24,881 bases of DNA from Candidatus Caldarchaeales archaeon (GTDB taxonomy: Archaea > Thermoproteota > Nitrososphaeria_A > Caldarchaeales > Calditenuaceae), in contig JAVVGN010000021.1 of NCBI GenBank assembly GCA_032249095.1, positions 1-24,881 of the forward strand, in the 5' to 3' direction. Shown piece by piece: positions 17,711 to 24,881 of the stretch. The number at the start of each line of letters is the position of its first letter. Within the stretch, counting starts at the first letter, position 1. The notes beneath the pieces are model-generated. The model saw only the letters and a program-made list of their open reading frames with translations. It did no database searches and had not been told where the DNA came from. The position numbers were made by a program, and so were the translations under genes.

Positions 17711-18901
17711 ATGTACACCATCGCGAGGGTTTCTAGCTGGGATCTCGAGGGATGCTGGAAGTACTACTCGCGCGGGTGGGAGAGCAGCCTCCACAGACTC
17801 TGCTCACGCACTGGGTCCTTCCCGCCAGCCATGGCACACTACTATATCTCGAAGTACACCGAGCCCGGGTGGCTTGTGCTGGACCCTTTCGCTGGGAAGG
17901 GTACGGCTCCGCTCGAGGCATGCCTGAACGGGAGGATCGGTATAGGCAACGACCTGGCGCCAGAAGCGTTCGTCCTGACACACGCAAAGGTTAGGCCCGC
18001 AACGTACGGGGAGGTTGAGGATTGGGTGAGGAGGAACCGAGCATCAATAGCTATGGGAGTTGACCCAGATGCCCCGGAGGAGGTCCAGGCATTTTACCAC
18101 AGGTCGACTCTCAGACAGCTCATGGCTCTGAGAGAGCTACTGATGCGCGACGACACGCGGCTCGGAATCTTCCTCAAGGGGCTTGTCTTAGGGATTCTTC
18201 ACGGCTCGAGTAGCTGCAGCCTCTCCGTCAAATGTTCCCACTCGTTCTCAATGTCTCCAGGCTACGTCGCCCGATCCCGGAGGAGGTTAGGGCTCTCCAA
18301 GCCTCGTAGAGACGTGTCGAGATGCATTCTAGAGAGGGCTGCCAGCATACTCTTTGGGAGGCTGCCCGTGGTAGAGGGCCAGGCCTATAACTGCGACGCT
18401 CGGAGCCTACCGCTTCCTTCATCGATAGCCGACTTCATCATAACATCCCCGCCATACCTCAACATGCAGACCTACGCCTGGGACAACTGGCTGAGGCTCT
18501 GGTTCCTAGGATACGATTACAGAGAGGTGGGGCGGCGCCTCTTCCACTCCCAGTCCCTATCCAGGTTCGCCGAGTTCATGGAGCAGTCACTCCGCGAGAT
18601 GTATCGCCTGCTAAAGCGCGACAGGGCCTGCGTCATAGTGCTCGGCATAGTCAAGAAAAGGGGCGTCCTGATAGATCTCGCCGAGTTCGTAAGGCCGATA
18701 GCCGAGCGTGTCGGCTTCAACGTGAGGCGGGTCGTCTACGACAACATCCCCAAGGAGAGCAAATACCTTATGTATATAGGAGACAAGCAGGGGGTTAGCA
18801 GAGAAGCTGTGCTGGAGCTGGAGAAGGGAGAGGCGTCTGAGAGACCGGTGCATACTCCGCTAAAAACTCGGCAATTATCGGGGAGGATGGTTACTGCTTG
18901 A
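17711..18901 (+). CDS. DNA methyltransferase (N4-C/N6-A type) with the AdoMet motif ahead of the SPPY catalytic motif
   Basis: SFPPAMAHYYISKYTEPGWLVLDPFAGKGTAPLEA is the motif X/I region. About 170 aa downstream, FIITSPPYLNMQTYAWDNW...MYRLLKRDRACVIVLG is the motif IV region. Both resemble the N6_N4_Mtase domain but in permuted order. Confidence 0.75.
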   Translation: MYTIARVSSWDLEGCWKYYSRGWESSLHRLCSRTGSFPPAMAHYYISKYTEPGWLVLDPFAGKGTAPLEACLNGRIGIGNDLAPEAFVLTHAKVRPATYGEVEDWVRRNRASIAMGVDPDAPEEVQAFYHRSTLRQLMALRELLMRDDTRLGIFLKGLVLGILHGSSSCSLSVKCSHSFSMSPGYVARSRRRLGLSKPRRDVSRCILERAASILFGRLPVVEGQAYNCDARSLPLPSSIADFIITSPPYLNMQTYAWDNWLRLWFLGYDYREVGRRLFHSQSLSRFAEFMEQSLREMYRLLKRDRACVIVLGIVKKRGVLIDLAEFVRPIAERVGFNVRRVVYDNIPKESKYLMYIGDKQGVSREAVLELEKGEASERPVHTPLKTRQLSGRMVTA

Positions 18902-20025
18902 TGATTGAGAGCCACGGTGAGGTATGCAGGCTCGGATACCTCCGGCTGATCGTGGCCGCCGCGAAGTCGGAGTCTGCTCGGGACCAAGCGTCTCAGAGCT
19001 TCTTAGCGTCTATCCTCGAGGAATCTGTTAAAAAGCTGAAGGAACCGCCGGCCTCTCAGGTCGACGCTGTAGGATTGATAAGGAGCACAGTTGCGGCGCG
19101 AAACTACGTATCCCTCGCGGCAGACCTTAACTTGCTCAGCAAGAAGTCACCAACCCTCGGCGAGAACGGCATCGTCTACGCCTTTACCAGAAGTATCGCG
19201 CACAGCGAAGCCTTTCTTAGGGGCGAGGCCGAGCTGTCACTCCTAGACGTGATAACCCTGAAGCCGGTTGAGCGCCTATTCTTCTTCTGGCTCCTAGTAG
19301 TAAACGACTATCTCGTCTTACCCAGCATAATTAGATGGGTCTTGGAGACCGAGAGCTTCTCCAGGCTGGAGGCCATGAACTATGTCATGGAAGATCTTTA
19401 CCCGCAGGCCCTGCAGTCCATACTCGCGGCAGCTGGTAAGAGGGCTCAGAGCGAGCTGCTGCCAAAGCTAGAGGCGGCTCAGAGGTATAGGGAGGAAAGG
19501 CTCAAATATTCGAGGAAGGCTGAGTGGATCAGAAGCAGCCTCTACGCCAAGTATAGGCACATCGTGCCACCGAGGCTGGAGTGGCTCGTCGACCTAGGAC
19601 TGCTGAGGCGGGTCAAGAGGGGGCGCTACGACGTCTCAGACCAAGTGCTGGGTCATAAGGCCCTTTTCCTCAAAACCCTCTCCTACCCGCCCTCAAAGAT
19701 CACGGAGCAGATCTTCTCGACGCTTGCTCCCGTGATGATCCAGTACGCCGGCAAAGCCTCTAGGGAAGCTTTGAACAAGGAGCTCATAAACACGTTTAAC
19801 GCAATCTCCACATACCTCGGCGGCCCAGTAAAAATAAGGCTCCTAGAACTCGCCGTCTGCATACGACTGCTAGAGAATAACCAGGTAGCGACGCCGTCCC
19901 AAATTCGCGAAACCATAAACAAACTCTCAGTCCTTTACCCAGACAAGATATACCTAGTCCCAGGACCGGACGACAACCTGTACCTCTCCAGAATAAACCT
20001 CAGCCCAAAAGAACTAGCCCTCTAA
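18901..20025 (+). CDS. Hypothetical protein, mostly helical with a central winged-helix-like segment. Partner of the methyltransferase.
   Basis: Its ATG at 18901 shares one nucleotide with the MTase TGA (tgATG). The ORF track uses the TTG at 18898. PPRLEWLVDLGLLRRVKRGRYDVSD looks like a wHTH wing. I could not recognise a PD-(D/E)xK, HNH or GIY-YIG motif. Confidence 0.5.
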   Translation: MIESHGEVCRLGYLRLIVAAAKSESARDQASQSFLASILEESVKKLKEPPASQVDAVGLIRSTVAARNYVSLAADLNLLSKKSPTLGENGIVYAFTRSIAHSEAFLRGEAELSLLDVITLKPVERLFFFWLLVVNDYLVLPSIIRWVLETESFSRLEAMNYVMEDLYPQALQSILAAAGKRAQSELLPKLEAAQRYREERLKYSRKAEWIRSSLYAKYRHIVPPRLEWLVDLGLLRRVKRGRYDVSDQVLGHKALFLKTLSYPPSKITEQIFSTLAPVMIQYAGKASREALNKELINTFNAISTYLGGPVKIRLLELAVCIRLLENNQVATPSQIRETINKLSVLYPDKIYLVPGPDDNLYLSRINLSPKELAL

Positions 20026-20281
20026 AGGATTAACAACTATGTTATGTATTAGATTCTTCGGGCTGATACTCTATATTTTAATAGGATAGTGTTATAATAA
20101 CAGGTTTTATAGCTGAAGAATTCCTATAGTAGCCCCGCGAGTCGAAATAGGAGCCCCTAGAGGGTATTTAAAGCCTTATTCAGACACCATAGGCGCTGTA
20201 CAAGTAACCCTTAAAATTTTGCGCCAAGTCCTATACTAGTGACTAGTGTCAATGGTTGAGAAGAAGCAGATTGCTTGTATA

Positions 20282-20319
20282 TTGAGTGCAAAGTTCTCCC
20301 TTGAGTGCAGAGTTCTCCC
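20282..20319 (+). repeat. Tandem 19-nt direct repeat (2 units, 1 mismatch) in the ADH upstream region
   Basis: ttgagtgcaaagttctccc followed by ttgagtgcagagttctccc. It lies immediately downstream of a TATA-like gtatatt and ~33 nt upstream of the likely TTG start at 20352. Confidence 0.8.
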
Positions 20320-20351
20320 CTAGGCCAGGTTATACGCCGAATGAGAGGGAA

Positions 20352-21455
20352 TTGACTACTCGGAAGGCTATCAATGGAAGCAGAGTTTGGAAACACCCCA
20401 CGGCTCAGTTAAACGAGACTCCAATACCCAAGCCCGGTCATGGACGGGTGCTGATTGGTTTAAAGGCGGTAGGCATCTGCGGCTCAGACATTCATATGGT
20501 TGAGAGCGATTCAAGTGGTTGGATGCTCTATCCTGGGCTGACCAAACTTCCGGTGGTTCCTGGACATGAGCTATCGGGCCAGGTTGTGGAGGTGGGTCCA
20601 GGGGTTGAGGGCATCAGGTCTGGTGGCATGGTGGTTGTTGAGGAGATGCAATGGTGTGGAATGTGCTACGCGTGTAGGACCTCGTATTATAATCAATGTG
20701 AACACCTCGAAGAGGTTGGATTTACAATAAATGGTGGAATGGAGGAATACATGGTTACGGACACTAAGTTCGTTTGGAAAATAAATGGTTTTTTAGATGT
20801 GTTCGGTAGCGAGGAAAGAGCATTCGAGGTAGGGTCATTGGTTGAACCCATATGCGTCAGCTACAACGCAATATTCGTTAGAGCTGACAATTACAGACCA
20901 GGATGGAATGTTGTGGTGTGGGGTGCGGGTCCTATAGGGCTTGGGGCGGTTGCTCTTTTGAAGGCTGCAGGTGCTGCAAAAATCATAGTGATGGAGCCCG
21001 TGGAGAAGAGGAGAGAGATAGCAAAGTATCTTGGTGCTACACACATTTTTGATCCAATAGTGCTGAAGAAAAAAGGTGTTAGACCATTTGAAAAGGTGCT
21101 TGAGGTAACGGATGGTATGGGTGCTAACTTGCATGTAGAGGCCACAGGTGTTCCAGCAGAGGTGCTCCCTGAAATAGAGAGGTCTCTTGCAATAGTTGGC
21201 TCTGTGGTTTGGATAGGGAGAGCGGATCAAGAGGCCCCGATTTGGTTAGAGCGTTTCCAGACAAGAGCTGCCCAGCTCTTTGGTTCACAAGGCCATGCAG
21301 GGAATGCGGTATTCCCCTCTGTGATTAGGATGATAGAGAGCGGGATCCTCGATCCAGCACCAATAATAACAACTAGATACAGGTTATCAGATGTTTTGGA
21401 GGCGTTTGAGCGTGCTAAAGAAAGAAGGGAAGTCAAAGTTTTAGTAAAGCCATGA
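20352..21455 (+). CDS. Zinc-dependent medium-chain alcohol/polyol dehydrogenase (sorbitol/threonine DH-like)
   Basis: GICGSDIHM, PGHELSGQVVEVG and the Rossmann motif VVWGAGPIGLGA. Start set at TTG 20352 because the homologous N-terminus (TTRKAI...) begins there. The 20286 start would read through a 19-nt tandem repeat. Confidence 0.85.
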   Translation: MTTRKAINGSRVWKHPTAQLNETPIPKPGHGRVLIGLKAVGICGSDIHMVESDSSGWMLYPGLTKLPVVPGHELSGQVVEVGPGVEGIRSGGMVVVEEMQWCGMCYACRTSYYNQCEHLEEVGFTINGGMEEYMVTDTKFVWKINGFLDVFGSEERAFEVGSLVEPICVSYNAIFVRADNYRPGWNVVVWGAGPIGLGAVALLKAAGAAKIIVMEPVEKRREIAKYLGATHIFDPIVLKKKGVRPFEKVLEVTDGMGANLHVEATGVPAEVLPEIERSLAIVGSVVWIGRADQEAPIWLERFQTRAAQLFGSQGHAGNAVFPSVIRMIESGILDPAPIITTRYRLSDVLEAFERAKERREVKVLVKP

Positions 21456-22200
21456 AACTGTCTGCCAAAGAACCCATGTTGGACATCAGAGGGTATGGGA
21501 AGATAATAATTTTTCATCCACACGACAACGTAGCGATTGCAGCGGAAAGAATAGAAAAGGGGGAAAAGCTGGTTGTAGGGGATCTTGAAATGGTAATTAA
21601 GGAGTCTATACCTCAGTGGCACACAATTGCAATCAAGCCGATAAAAAGGAGATTATGTAATAAAATTAGGCTGTAAAATAGGAAAGGCTTCACGTAGGAT
21701 CATTATAGGAGAATGGGTCAGCACTCACAATTTGTCGAGCCACTGGTTTAGGGGGCGGGCTGTTTGGAGAGTGAGAGCAGGCTAAATGTTTTCCTACGAG
21801 ATGATCCGTTCTTTCCGCTTGGGATACGGAATAAAGTAGTCGTAATATCTGTGGCAGCATCAGCCAGCCATGCTGTTAAAAAGGATCTCAGCCGCTGCAG
21901 GTGCTCCCGGATTCATACATGCCAAGGGTACGGACGGAGAAGTAGGTATAGACGCGGAAATTACTAGGAGGACGTTAATTAACGTGGCACTAAACCCAAA
22001 TGTCTACGCGGTACTATTCGTAGGTCTAGGTGACGAAAGGTTCAACGCACAAGATCTAGGCGAGCTCGTAGAAGAAAAGAAGCCCTCTAAATGGCTCCAT
22101 ATCCACTCTTTAGGGGAATCAGGGGCCATCCAGAAAGGTTTTGAAATTGTAAGCGGTATGTTAGAAGAGGCCTCGCTACAACACAGGACGGCCATAAGTG
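21452..22200 (+). pseudogene. uxaA: Altronate/galactarate dehydratase (UxaA/GarD family), multiply frameshifted and 3'-truncated
   Basis: The homology runs through several frames:
- SAF domain FHPHDNVAIAAERIEKGEKL...IAIKPIK.
- It continues in another frame as KGDYVIKLGCKIGKASRRIIIGEWVSTHN after an A5 run (21643-21647).
- Further pieces are FFPLGIRNKVVVISV and RTLINVALNPNVYAVLFVGLGDE, in two more frames.
- Homology ends near 22200, where an antisense transposase fragment begins. Confidence 0.75.
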
Positions 22201-22501
22201 GCTTATTTATACACCTCCTAAGGGCCTTCTTGAGGAATGATAATGCGTTTAGACTGCTCCTACCATAAGACGCCTCCAGAGCCAATAATTCCTTGGAATC
22301 CACATCTACTGCAGACCATATGTATACGTAAGATTTCTTGACACGTAGTTTGGTCTCATCAACAGCTATACACCTCCCATACCTAGGCTCAGTAGCAACC
22401 CTGACCTCAGATACCTTCTTGGCGAGGTAGTGGACGACAGACTTGCTTATCGGCTCCAAACCCATGCTAAGGACCCTAGACACCTTTCCTACAGCCACCA
22501 T
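22196..22501 (-). mobile_element. Fragment of a DDE transposase gene (IS6-family-like), C-terminally truncated
   Basis: GRCIAVDETKLRVKKSYVYIWSAVDVDSKELLALEASYGRSSLNALSFLKKAL matches the first-Asp region of IS6-type transposases (vDET......yLW.AiD....eiLa..vs..R....A..FL). The remainder of ORF 22004-22501 is antisense to the uxaA remnant. Neither the DDE completion nor terminal inverted repeats were identified. Confidence 0.55.
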
Positions 22502-22779
22502 GAAACATGTAGCCCAACACTGCTAGTACCTCAACCTCCCTACTCTTTTATTATTACGAATAAAACAGCTCGAAACTAGGGCTACAACATCCATACAAAC
22601 AAGACAAATCAACAGGCCTTTAAATATAACGCCTTATTTGGACATTATCCGAGCTGCGTTTCTTACGTTGAATCGATTCTCATATCTCCAGTCGAGTCTG
22701 TTTAAACATTGCTCCCGCTCTAACGTCTGATCTGTTACTCTTATGAAAATTTAAGTAAGAAAACCAAGGAACTAGTTAG

Positions 22780-23792
22780 ATGAGTCTTTATAAAGAGCAG
22801 CTTAAGAGATACGTGATCAGAAAGATTGTCAGCTATATCATCGTTCTCTTTCTAACTATCACAGCGGTTTTCTTCATATTAAGGTTGATTCCCGGCAACC
22901 CTATTCGCGTATACGTATACATGTTGAAGTCACGATATGGTTTTGAACCTGTTGGGTACGTGACTATAAGGATGTTTGAAGAAATGTTCGGCCTTAATCA
23001 GGATATCTTCACACAACATGTGATTTTCCTTCGAAGACTTTTCTTTGAACTAAATTTGGGTCCCTCCTTCATCGCTTTTCCCACACCTGCTCAAGAATTA
23101 ATACTTCGCCACCTGCCATGGACTATAATTCTTTTATCCGTTACAACTGCTTTCTCATGGATGGTGGGTCTTTTGCTGGGCGTGCTTGTTGGATGGAAAC
23201 GTGGTACAAGGTTTGACAATGTATTCTTTACTTTATCTCTAGTATTCTCTCAGATACCATACTACATCCTTGCCGTTATACTCCTCTTACTATTCGCTTA
23301 CATCATCCCTGTCCTCCCCTCAAGAGGTGCATATGCAGCTACATTAGTGACCCTCGACATAAATTTCGTCCTTAGCGCTCTCCAACACGCGCTGTTGCCT
23401 GCTTCTTCAATAATTATTGTGTTTATGATGAACTGGCTGATTTCTACAAGATCTTTGGCAATCACTATATTAGGAGAGGATTACTTACAATATGCTTTAG
23501 CTAAAGGCTTGAGTACAAAAAGAATATTAACGCGCTATATTCTAAGGAATACACTTTTGCCTAGGCTACGGGCTTAGCTATATCTTTAGGTTTCATTCTA
23601 TCTGGAGCATTTTTAGTAGAGTGGATATTTGTTTACCCGGGTATAGGCACACTCTTTGTAAGTTCTGTAGGATTGATCGATTTTAATGTGTTGCAAGGCA
23701 TAATTATACTGACAATCTTTGCTGTTTTGACGGCTAACTTGATAATGGACTTGATTTATCCGATAATTGACCTTCGGGTTGCGCTAACATGA
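22780..23792 (+). pseudogene. oppB: Peptide/nickel-type ABC transporter permease (OppB/DppB family) with one frameshift near 23561-23566
   Basis: ORF 22780-23577 ends at ...RNTLLPRLRA*. The conserved C-terminus continues in another frame to TGA 23790-23792: ATGLAISLGFILSGAFLVEWIFVYPGIGTLFVSSVGLIDFNVLQGIIILTIFAVLTANLIMDLIYPIIDLRVALT. That stop forms an ATGA overlap with the next gene. Confidence 0.75.
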
Positions 23793-24688
23793 CCGTGCTA
23801 AGAAACGATCTTGTGAAGACCTTTACAAGTATCAAGTTTTACTTGGGTAGGTCTAAAAAACTGCAAGTAAGTGTAAGTATTATGTCATTATTAACCGGGT
23901 TATCTCTTTTAGAAACGCTAGTAAATTCGTTTAGACTGGGTGGATTGCAGTCAAGTGCCATCGGCTTCTTCCCTCGATTACTTAGCCCCTCACTCGAGCA
24001 TCCTTTAGGGACCGATCATTTTGGTCGTGATGTCCTTGCGATGCTTTTTACTGGCTTAAAGAATTCGCTCATAGTGGGTTTCTTGGTCGGGGGTGTGTCT
24101 ACCACAATAGCCGTATTTGTAGCGTTCTTCGCGGCTTACAAGGGTGGCATAATTGACAACTTCTTAAACTCACTAACCAACATTATATTAATTTTACCGG
24201 CATTGGTTATTGCGGCTGCGGCCGTTGTGTATATCCAGCGACTTGATTTACTGTATATAGCATTGGTGATATCGGCCTTCGCTTGGGCAGGTCCAGCTAG
24301 GTCGATAAGGGCACAGGTTTTATCGCTTAAGTCACGTCCGTACGTTGAACTTGCGAAAATGATAGGTGAGCGAGATTTTGAGATATTATTTTTTGAATTA
24401 TTGCCTAACGTTTTTCCATATATTCTCGTTGGTTTTGCGTATTCGGTCATTGGTGGGATCCTTGCGGAGGCTGGGTTAAGACTGATTGGGCTTGGGGCAG
24501 CCGAGATCATCACCCTCGGCTTGTTGTTGCATCTATATATGACGAGTGGCCTAATAGTGCAGGGATACTACCACTTCATAGTGGGCCCTGTCCTAATTTT
24601 GGTGTGTATTTTCGTTTCACTTAACTTGATAAACATGGGTTTGGACGAGCTTTTCAATCCTCGGCTTAGGAGGGTTACTGGAGAGTAG
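23789..24688 (+). CDS. oppC: Peptide/nickel-type ABC transporter permease (OppC/DppC family)
   Basis: HPLGTDHFGRDVLAMLF, WAGPARSIRAQVLSLKSRPYVELAKMIGE and LLPNVFPYILV are the OppC signature. Confidence 0.85.
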   Translation: MTVLRNDLVKTFTSIKFYLGRSKKLQVSVSIMSLLTGLSLLETLVNSFRLGGLQSSAIGFFPRLLSPSLEHPLGTDHFGRDVLAMLFTGLKNSLIVGFLVGGVSTTIAVFVAFFAAYKGGIIDNFLNSLTNIILILPALVIAAAAVVYIQRLDLLYIALVISAFAWAGPARSIRAQVLSLKSRPYVELAKMIGERDFEILFFELLPNVFPYILVGFAYSVIGGILAEAGLRLIGLGAAEIITLGLLLHLYMTSGLIVQGYYHFIVGPVLILVCIFVSLNLINMGLDELFNPRLRRVTGE

Positions 24689-24720
24689 GGGGGTTTGTGG
24701 GTTGTTCCGTGGAGTTTTTC

Positions 24721-24881
24721 TGGAGGTGATCCGGCCACACGTTCCCGTGCGGCCACCTTGTTACAACTTCTCCCCCCTCACCAGGCCTGGGCTCGGGCCA
24801 CCCAACTCGAGTGGCTCTCGCCCATTCCCAGCTCGGGTGGAGCGATGGGCAGTGTGTGCAAGGAGCGGGGACGTATTCACC
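24721..24881 (-). rRNA. 16S rRNA, 3'-terminal ~160 nt (gene runs off the window end)
   Basis: The reverse complement reads ggtgaatacgtccccgctccttgcacacactgcccatcgctccacccgag...gagaagttgtaacaaggtggccgcacgggaacgtgtggccggatcacctcca. This covers the 1390-1540 region (E. coli numbering): helix 44, helix 45 and the anti-SD tail. Confidence 0.9.

Follow-up and report, generated by a model that had tools for sequence, protein, structure and literature searches.

A contig-end 16S rRNA stub from a Calditenuaceae archaeon carries decoding-site letters shared across its lineage

The stretch of DNA analysed here (the window, 24,881 nucleotides) ends in the 3′ portion of a 16S rRNA gene whose decoding site departs from the expected letters at several conserved positions. 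We consider it very probable that the stub is the genuine 3′ terminus of the one functional 16S gene in a Calditenuaceae archaeon, and that its odd letters are inherited lineage states of a working ribosome. The only RNA family that cmscan finds in the window is SSU_rRNA_archaea (RF01959), at 24721-24881 on the minus strand, with 136.2 bits (E 1.9e-36) against a gathering threshold of 50 bits. The match spans model positions 1317-1478, which include helices 44 and 45 and the anti-Shine-Dalgarno end, and is truncated on its 5′ side by the contig end. Since the window is the whole of contig C21 in a 146-contig MAG (G000; 93% complete, 54% G+C), it was the assembly, not biology, that broke the gene; annotators can treat the stub without special measures, as an ordinary rRNA gene end where the assembly stops. 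It is 96% identical to the 16S of a genome of the same genus (G007). The host belongs to the Calditenuaceae, order Caldarchaeales (the former Aigarchaeota), and is not a crenarchaeote in the usual sense.

Compared with the RF01959 consensus, four conserved positions are changed (E. coli numbering, minus strand): C1400U at 24851, G1405A at 24846, C1496U at 24765 and A1408G at 24843. The 1410:1490 pair is also altered relative to the model, on both sides, to U-A. The initial annotation had named the substitutions at 1400, 1405 and 1496, with coordinates and E. coli numbering that prove right by the Rfam model consensus and by an alignment including the annotated E. coli 16S, in which the relatives' sequences place the Caldarchaeales U in the column of E. 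coli C1400; A1408G was absent from its list. U1400 replaces a near-universal C that stacks against the wobble pair of the P site (PMC7005279), in agreement with the tRNA wobble contact that had been ascribed to it. A1405 and U1496 are the 5′ and 3′ partners of a compensated helix-44 pair, and G1408 is a eukaryote-like letter in place of the Rfam archaeal consensus A.

But how far does each of these substitutions reach? We scanned the 1392-1409 block in 301 genomes spread over the phylum Thermoproteota and aligned the 16S 3′ ends of relatives separately. G1408 is found in every match listed from this sample and looks phylum-wide. U1400 is present in 35/35 16S matches inside Caldarchaeales, from four families, while outside the order it is carried by about three sampled genomes (G045 and G165 among the matches listed, plus G219, identified later). 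In a full-length alignment, it occurs in 17/17 Caldarchaeales ingroup genes and in 0/31 outgroup genes. Judging from these genomes, U1400 is fixed across the whole order and is hence not special to G000. The order shares a further change in the helix-23 loop, where A replaces the near-universal G693 in 17/17 aligned Caldarchaeales 16S genes and G is kept in 31/31 outgroup Thermoproteota genes (the region is unassembled in G000). We take 693 to be a P/E-site nucleotide that is usually treated as invariant.

In the same 301-genome scan, A1405 is confined within the order to genera g1 and g2, namely the window's genus (8 genomes) and its sister Calditenuis; outside the order it occurs in one unrelated outgroup genome. 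Every A1405 gene in the relatives' alignment (7 aligned) has U1496, and every G1405 gene has C1496, so the pair that had been flagged as worth seeking in relatives is indeed present, and is fixed in two sister genera. In a 16S tree with the 1405 and 1496 columns retained, the A-U carriers make up one side of a branch with an SH-aLRT of 86; a single change therefore suffices, and A1405-U1496 may have arisen once, in the common ancestor of the two genera. A scan of GTDB species representatives with a loose degenerate 18-mer listed at least 120 stretches, 28 of which are genuine 16S genes. U1496 accompanies A1405 in 27 of these 28 listed genes, in line with the proposal of the initial annotation that the two form a compensated, selected pair in a functional gene. 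Nine of the listed genes are from Calditenuaceae and the others are scattered over bacteria and archaea, among the matches listed Nanoarchaeia, an Asgard MAG, Ignisphaera, Saccharibacteria, Levyibacteriota, Chloroflexota, Spirochaetia, several Proteobacteria and others. As the pair recurs across unrelated taxa with both partners changed, it has the marks of a classic recurrent Watson-Crick covariation.

The variant letters of the window are shared by Ca. Calditenuis fumarioli, by Calditenuaceae archaeon JGI OTU-1 (pSL4) and by several hot-spring MAGs labelled 'Thermoproteota' or 'Nitrososphaerota'. An explicit statement of U1400 in Aigarchaeota was not found in the literature searched, which does not show it to be unreported; small additions that we did not find stated there are U1400 throughout the order (and A693 with it), the A1405-U1496 pair of the two genera and the predicted Cm1402 guide that co-varies, described below. 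As a separate observation, the same-genus MAG G002 contains a second, divergent full-length archaeal 16S with C1400, A1405, A1408 and U1496 (L017 = G002:C22:781-2261). This gene has AT-rich flanks and sits on an 85-kb contig, while the Calditenuaceae-type 16S of G002 is on C31; the extra gene is probably on a foreign contig in the bin, from a symbiont or a contaminant.

Four lines of evidence bear on whether the stub belongs to a working gene: the 16S copy number of relatives, the other rRNA stubs of G000, a leader-trailer helix and a guide RNA that fits the stub. A single 16S gene is present in each of the near-complete relatives G001 and G024. Besides the window stub, G000 has just one further 16S piece, a 5′ stub at the end of contig C98 (model 1-255), found by BLAST with the rRNA loci of relatives followed by cmscan. 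The same procedure located 23S stubs at contig ends, the 5′ end at the end of C139 and the 3′ end at the start of C57. A first round of family searches of G000 for SSU and LSU had returned nothing; these were false negatives on short contig-end stubs, all four of which were recovered by BLAST and cmscan. The second, canonical 16S that the initial annotation had weighed as a possible sign of a pseudogene was not seen in G000, where only the matching 5′ stub turned up, and the 23S whose whereabouts it had left to be found lies on C139 and C57, apart from the 16S contigs.

The 16S leader on C98 pairs at 21 of 21 positions with the window trailer at 24696-24716 (minus strand), just past the mature 3′ end, which makes up the 3′ strand of the pre-16S processing stem. 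A homologous leader-trailer helix exists in same-genus G001, where the core differs on both strands. Together, the complete pairing and this homologous helix indicate that C98 and C21 hold the two ends of one gene. In same-genus genomes, homology of the trailer reaches about 37 nt past the gene. No canonical bulge-helix-bulge motif was seen when we looked for one in the processing helix. Directly upstream of the helix, the C98 leader contains a hairpin of about 10 bp, roughly 60-95 nt upstream of the 16S 5′ end (L157); homologues in L009, L011, L012 and L019 keep the stem sequence across the genus and vary in the loop. The G000 16S is thus seen as two pieces, model 1-255 on C98 and 1317-1478 in the window, with the middle unassembled. 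The 16S genes of G003, G027, G021 and G030 (L019, L020, L021 and L018) are 2.1-3.2 kb long, which implies introns, and introns as in these relatives may be the reason why the middle of the G000 gene was not assembled.

Outside the window, at G000:C1:12481-12536 on the minus strand, lies a candidate dual-guide box C/D sRNA. It shows the marks of this class, namely C, D′, C′ and D boxes, guides of about 12 nt (here 12), a terminal stem (here GGG/CCC) and at least 9 bp of rRNA complementarity. Its D guide is complementary over 11 bp to the variant form of 16S 1398-1408, where U1400, A1405 and G1408 face A, U and C of the guide respectively, and the fifth-nucleotide rule applied to this guide points to C1402. 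In the 16S genes of G001 and G024, the D′ guide pairs with a stretch near E. coli position 940. Position 1402 is Cm in Pyrococcus abyssi (Cm1376) and in eukaryotes (yeast Cm1639) (PMC7005279, table 4), and the candidate resembles the guides for those sites in its C/D boxes and in its fifth-nucleotide target, which is here a prediction from sequence. We therefore regard C1402 as probably 2′-O-methylated by the matching sRNA. By contrast with the generic archaeal C/D sRNAs sR9 and sR2 in Rfam, to which its similarity is full-length but sub-threshold (23 bits against a cut-off of 36), the candidate is not a member of these families, and its guide is tuned to U1400, A1405 and G1408.

By exact pattern, the sRNA is kept in 39/61 genomes of the order (homologues L160-L189 and L204-L209). 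At the guide position that faces 1400, Caldarchaeales, G045 and family f16, all with U1400 in their 16S, have A, and families f27, f37 and f7 have G; of these last three, f27 has C1400 and the other two lack a 16S match in the scan. The predicted Cm1402 guide thus follows the state of 1400 in at least three lineages. The guide base facing 1405 is U in 13/13 A1405 genomes and either U or C in G1405 genomes; C is never found opposite A. Matches to the guide pattern in G018 (C4), G009 (C3, first site), G122, G112, G134 and G190 have no box architecture and were taken as chance, and a match in G067 is ambiguous.

The single-copy relatives, the matching stubs, the fully paired helix and an sRNA guide that fits the variant letters together argue that this 16S is the only copy in G000 and that it is functional. 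One could instead suppose that the real operon is elsewhere and that the stub is an rRNA pseudogene, decaying or not transcribed, or else a chimera or a binning error. This idea could draw on the stub's position at a contig end beside a lower-G+C insert and on the family searches of G000 that gave no rRNA. Yet those empty searches were false negatives, as BLAST with relatives' loci and cmscan gave the 5′ 16S and both 23S stubs; the C98 leader pairs with the window trailer without a mismatch; the trailer is homologous in same-genus genomes for about 37 nt beyond the gene; more than 12 independent assemblies have the same letters in genes that are full-length and single-copy; and the predicted Cm1402 guide fits the variant, whose changes are either compensated or lineage-fixed. 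A pseudogene or chimera is highly unlikely on this evidence. Even less probable, to the point that we hardly entertain it, is that low coverage at the contig end let sequencing or assembly errors pass for substitutions. The ends of contigs in short-read MAGs are prone to errors, but identical states recur across studies and sites (the JZ bins, the SKY bins, the pSL4 single-cell co-assembly and Ca. Calditenuis fumarioli), and the changes at 1405 and 1496 compensate each other. We reject all of these readings on account of the matching stubs, the complementary helix and the independent assemblies of relatives with the same letters, and it is these assemblies, too, that bear out the contention of the initial annotation that the changes are not random decay: the same letters would not be shared by chance.

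What, then, do the variant letters mean for the ribosome? We favor the reading that they are inherited lineage states. The 16S gene would form its own transcription and processing unit and would presumably be transcribed alone, after which leader and trailer would fold into the long helix for excision of the 16S. The mature rRNA would bear U1400, A1405-U1496 and G1408, with C1402 probably 2′-O-methylated via the matching sRNA. In the common ancestor of the two sister genera, G1405-C1496 would have been replaced once by the isosteric Watson-Crick pair A1405-U1496, which would preserve the geometry of helix 44 beside U1406-U1495, while U1400 would keep a pyrimidine at the position stacked on the wobble pair of the P site (PMC7005279). 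The sequence states and their distribution, the single copy, the processing helix and the unlinked layout are observed; beyond them, we infer that the variants are near-neutral in this background, without a new ribosome property. The neutrality of U1400 is not obvious, however, since C1400U is detrimental in E. coli, where it strongly lowers the mRNA-bound occupancy of orthogonal 30S subunits (PMC8986856), and compensation or a functional difference may exist in the lineage. A close likeness is the engineered E. coli O-30S-U1400 (PMC8986856), with the same base change at the same decoding-centre position. There, the change arose as a mutation that relieves toxicity, and mRNA engagement is almost lost; here, an entire order and a few other lineages have it as their wild type. 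The A site resembles that of eukaryotic 18S rRNA in having G1408 opposite A1493. Eukaryotes, in contrast, keep C1400 (PMC7005279, table 4) where the window has U1400, and G1408 is phylum-wide here among the matches listed and not specific to G000.

These considerations leave some room for a functional reading. One could hold that the decoding-site changes are adaptive, with U1400 (with A693) and A1405-U1496 altering P-site or A-site behaviour, for example through a different grip on the wobble pair or the mRNA or a different sensitivity to small molecules; compensation elsewhere would be needed. In favor of this speak the order-wide fixation of U1400 at a base in stacking contact with the wobble pair of the P site (PMC7005279), the strong detriment of the same change in the orthogonal E. 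coli subunits (PMC8986856), a second order-wide change at G693 and the contact of G1405 with 4,6-deoxystreptamine aminoglycosides (PMC12104382). As it lies at a second near-universal P/E-site position, A693 could point to coordinated change rather than to drift. However, when we looked in the other U1400 lineages (G045, G165 and G219) for a 16S partner that co-varies with U1400, we found none: they share none of the order's other 16S signatures, including A693, which argues that U1400 has no recurrent 16S partner. Moreover, the isosteric A1405-U1496 recurs sporadically in unrelated bacteria and archaea, as near-neutral covariation predicts, and a eukaryote-like A site via G1408 is already phylum-wide. 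We therefore think an adaptive origin distinctly unlikely. A related proposal, improbable in our view and offered as a speculation, is that the Caldarchaeales P site has been naturally re-tuned by U1400 and A693, and that this is tolerated or exploited through compensation outside the 16S rRNA. Candidates for such compensation would be tRNA wobble modifications, ribosomal proteins or initiation factors, and the re-tuning would have gone one step further with A1405-U1496 in Calditenuis and its sister genus. If this were true, the lineage would offer a natural system in which to study the purpose of the 'universal' C1400. For ribosome biology, the inheritance of these letters by a working ribosome makes a more modest point, in that a whole archaeal order has U1400 and A693 at two positions usually treated as invariant; these letters, together with the tracking guide, amount to a natural experiment on the strictness of the 'universal' decoding-centre nucleotides.

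The separation of the 16S from the 23S, which the initial annotation had proposed, is real. A cmscan of the whole window gives no LSU match, and neither a 23S nor an ITS follows in the 24.7 kb downstream of the 16S. The 23S stubs on C139 and C57 have non-rRNA flanks; upstream of the 5′ stub, C139 has 2.8 kb without rRNA, in synteny with the region upstream of the 23S in G001. The genes in G000 thus count as unlinked by the criterion of Brewer et al., more than 1.5 kb between 16S and 23S. The distance is 85 kb in same-genus G001 and 345 kb in G024, and the two genes are on separate contigs in G003, G008, G010, G020, G021 and G023. The layout is therefore not unusual for the host, as had been believed on the assumption of a crenarchaeote: the host is an aigarchaeote, and in its order unlinking is the norm and was published in 2011 (PMC3082918). 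Ca. Caldiarchaeum subterraneum has a single rRNA gene set in which 16S and 23S are not in an operon (Nunoura et al. 2011, PMC3082918), and unlinked Aigarchaeota rRNA genes, including those of SAGs, were listed again in 2022 (PMC8997704 supplement). The unlinked layout is thus already known and typical of the lineage.

Not all Caldarchaeales follow it. Families f1, f3 and f4, three of the four sampled, are unlinked, whereas family f2 is linked, with a spacer of about 150 nt (G019:C2:100241-104938 and G025:C1:167615-172317), so that unlinking or re-linking must have taken place inside the order. The window's genome resembles Ca. Caldiarchaeum subterraneum and the Aigarchaeota SAGs, members of the same order, in having a single gene set with 16S and 23S outside one operon; it differs from Ca. 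Caldiarchaeum subterraneum in that the latter has G1405-C1496, while the window's genus and Calditenuis have A1405-U1496. G024, of the same order and assembled as one contig, has U1400. Similar separations of far more than 1.5 kb with a copy number of one are known from unlinked Thermoplasmatales, DPANN and Asgard archaea (Brewer et al., bioRxiv 10.1101/705046; PMC8997704). A degenerate processing stem is described as one consequence of unlinking (PMC8997704); unlike such stems, the G000 16S retains a long, perfect leader-trailer helix of 21 bp.

The initial annotation had also suggested that the substitutions could let the organism escape PCR surveys, but this argument is weak. Of the common primers, those of the 1391R/1406R type have two internal mismatches to the clade and 1492R-type primers two or three. 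None lies within 4 nt of the primer 3′ end, and those at 1400 and 1496 are of the G-T type. V4 primers are unaffected, and V4 surveys do detect Calditenuis, which is reported from them as the dominant or most abundant archaeon in its spring (PMC12979851). Under-detection is at most a weak concern, for near-full-length amplicons.

On the plus strand, a convergent ABC-transporter permease ORF (oppC-like; 23789-24688; Pfam BPD_transp_1, E 9e-24) ends 32 nt from the 16S 3′ end, close to the gap of about 33 nt estimated before. It owes its closeness to the 16S to a 4.7-kb lower-G+C insert at about 20026-24700, outside the rRNA feature, which contains an ADH, a dehydratase fragment and two permease ORFs. 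The insert has a G+C of 0.39-0.50, against 0.55-0.58 upstream, and lies between the 16S and core genes. It is absent at the homologous place in G001, where the homologue of window 18644-20020 lies about 120 nt past the 16S 3′ end, and partly present in G007, where a permease homologue is 2.2 kb from the 16S.
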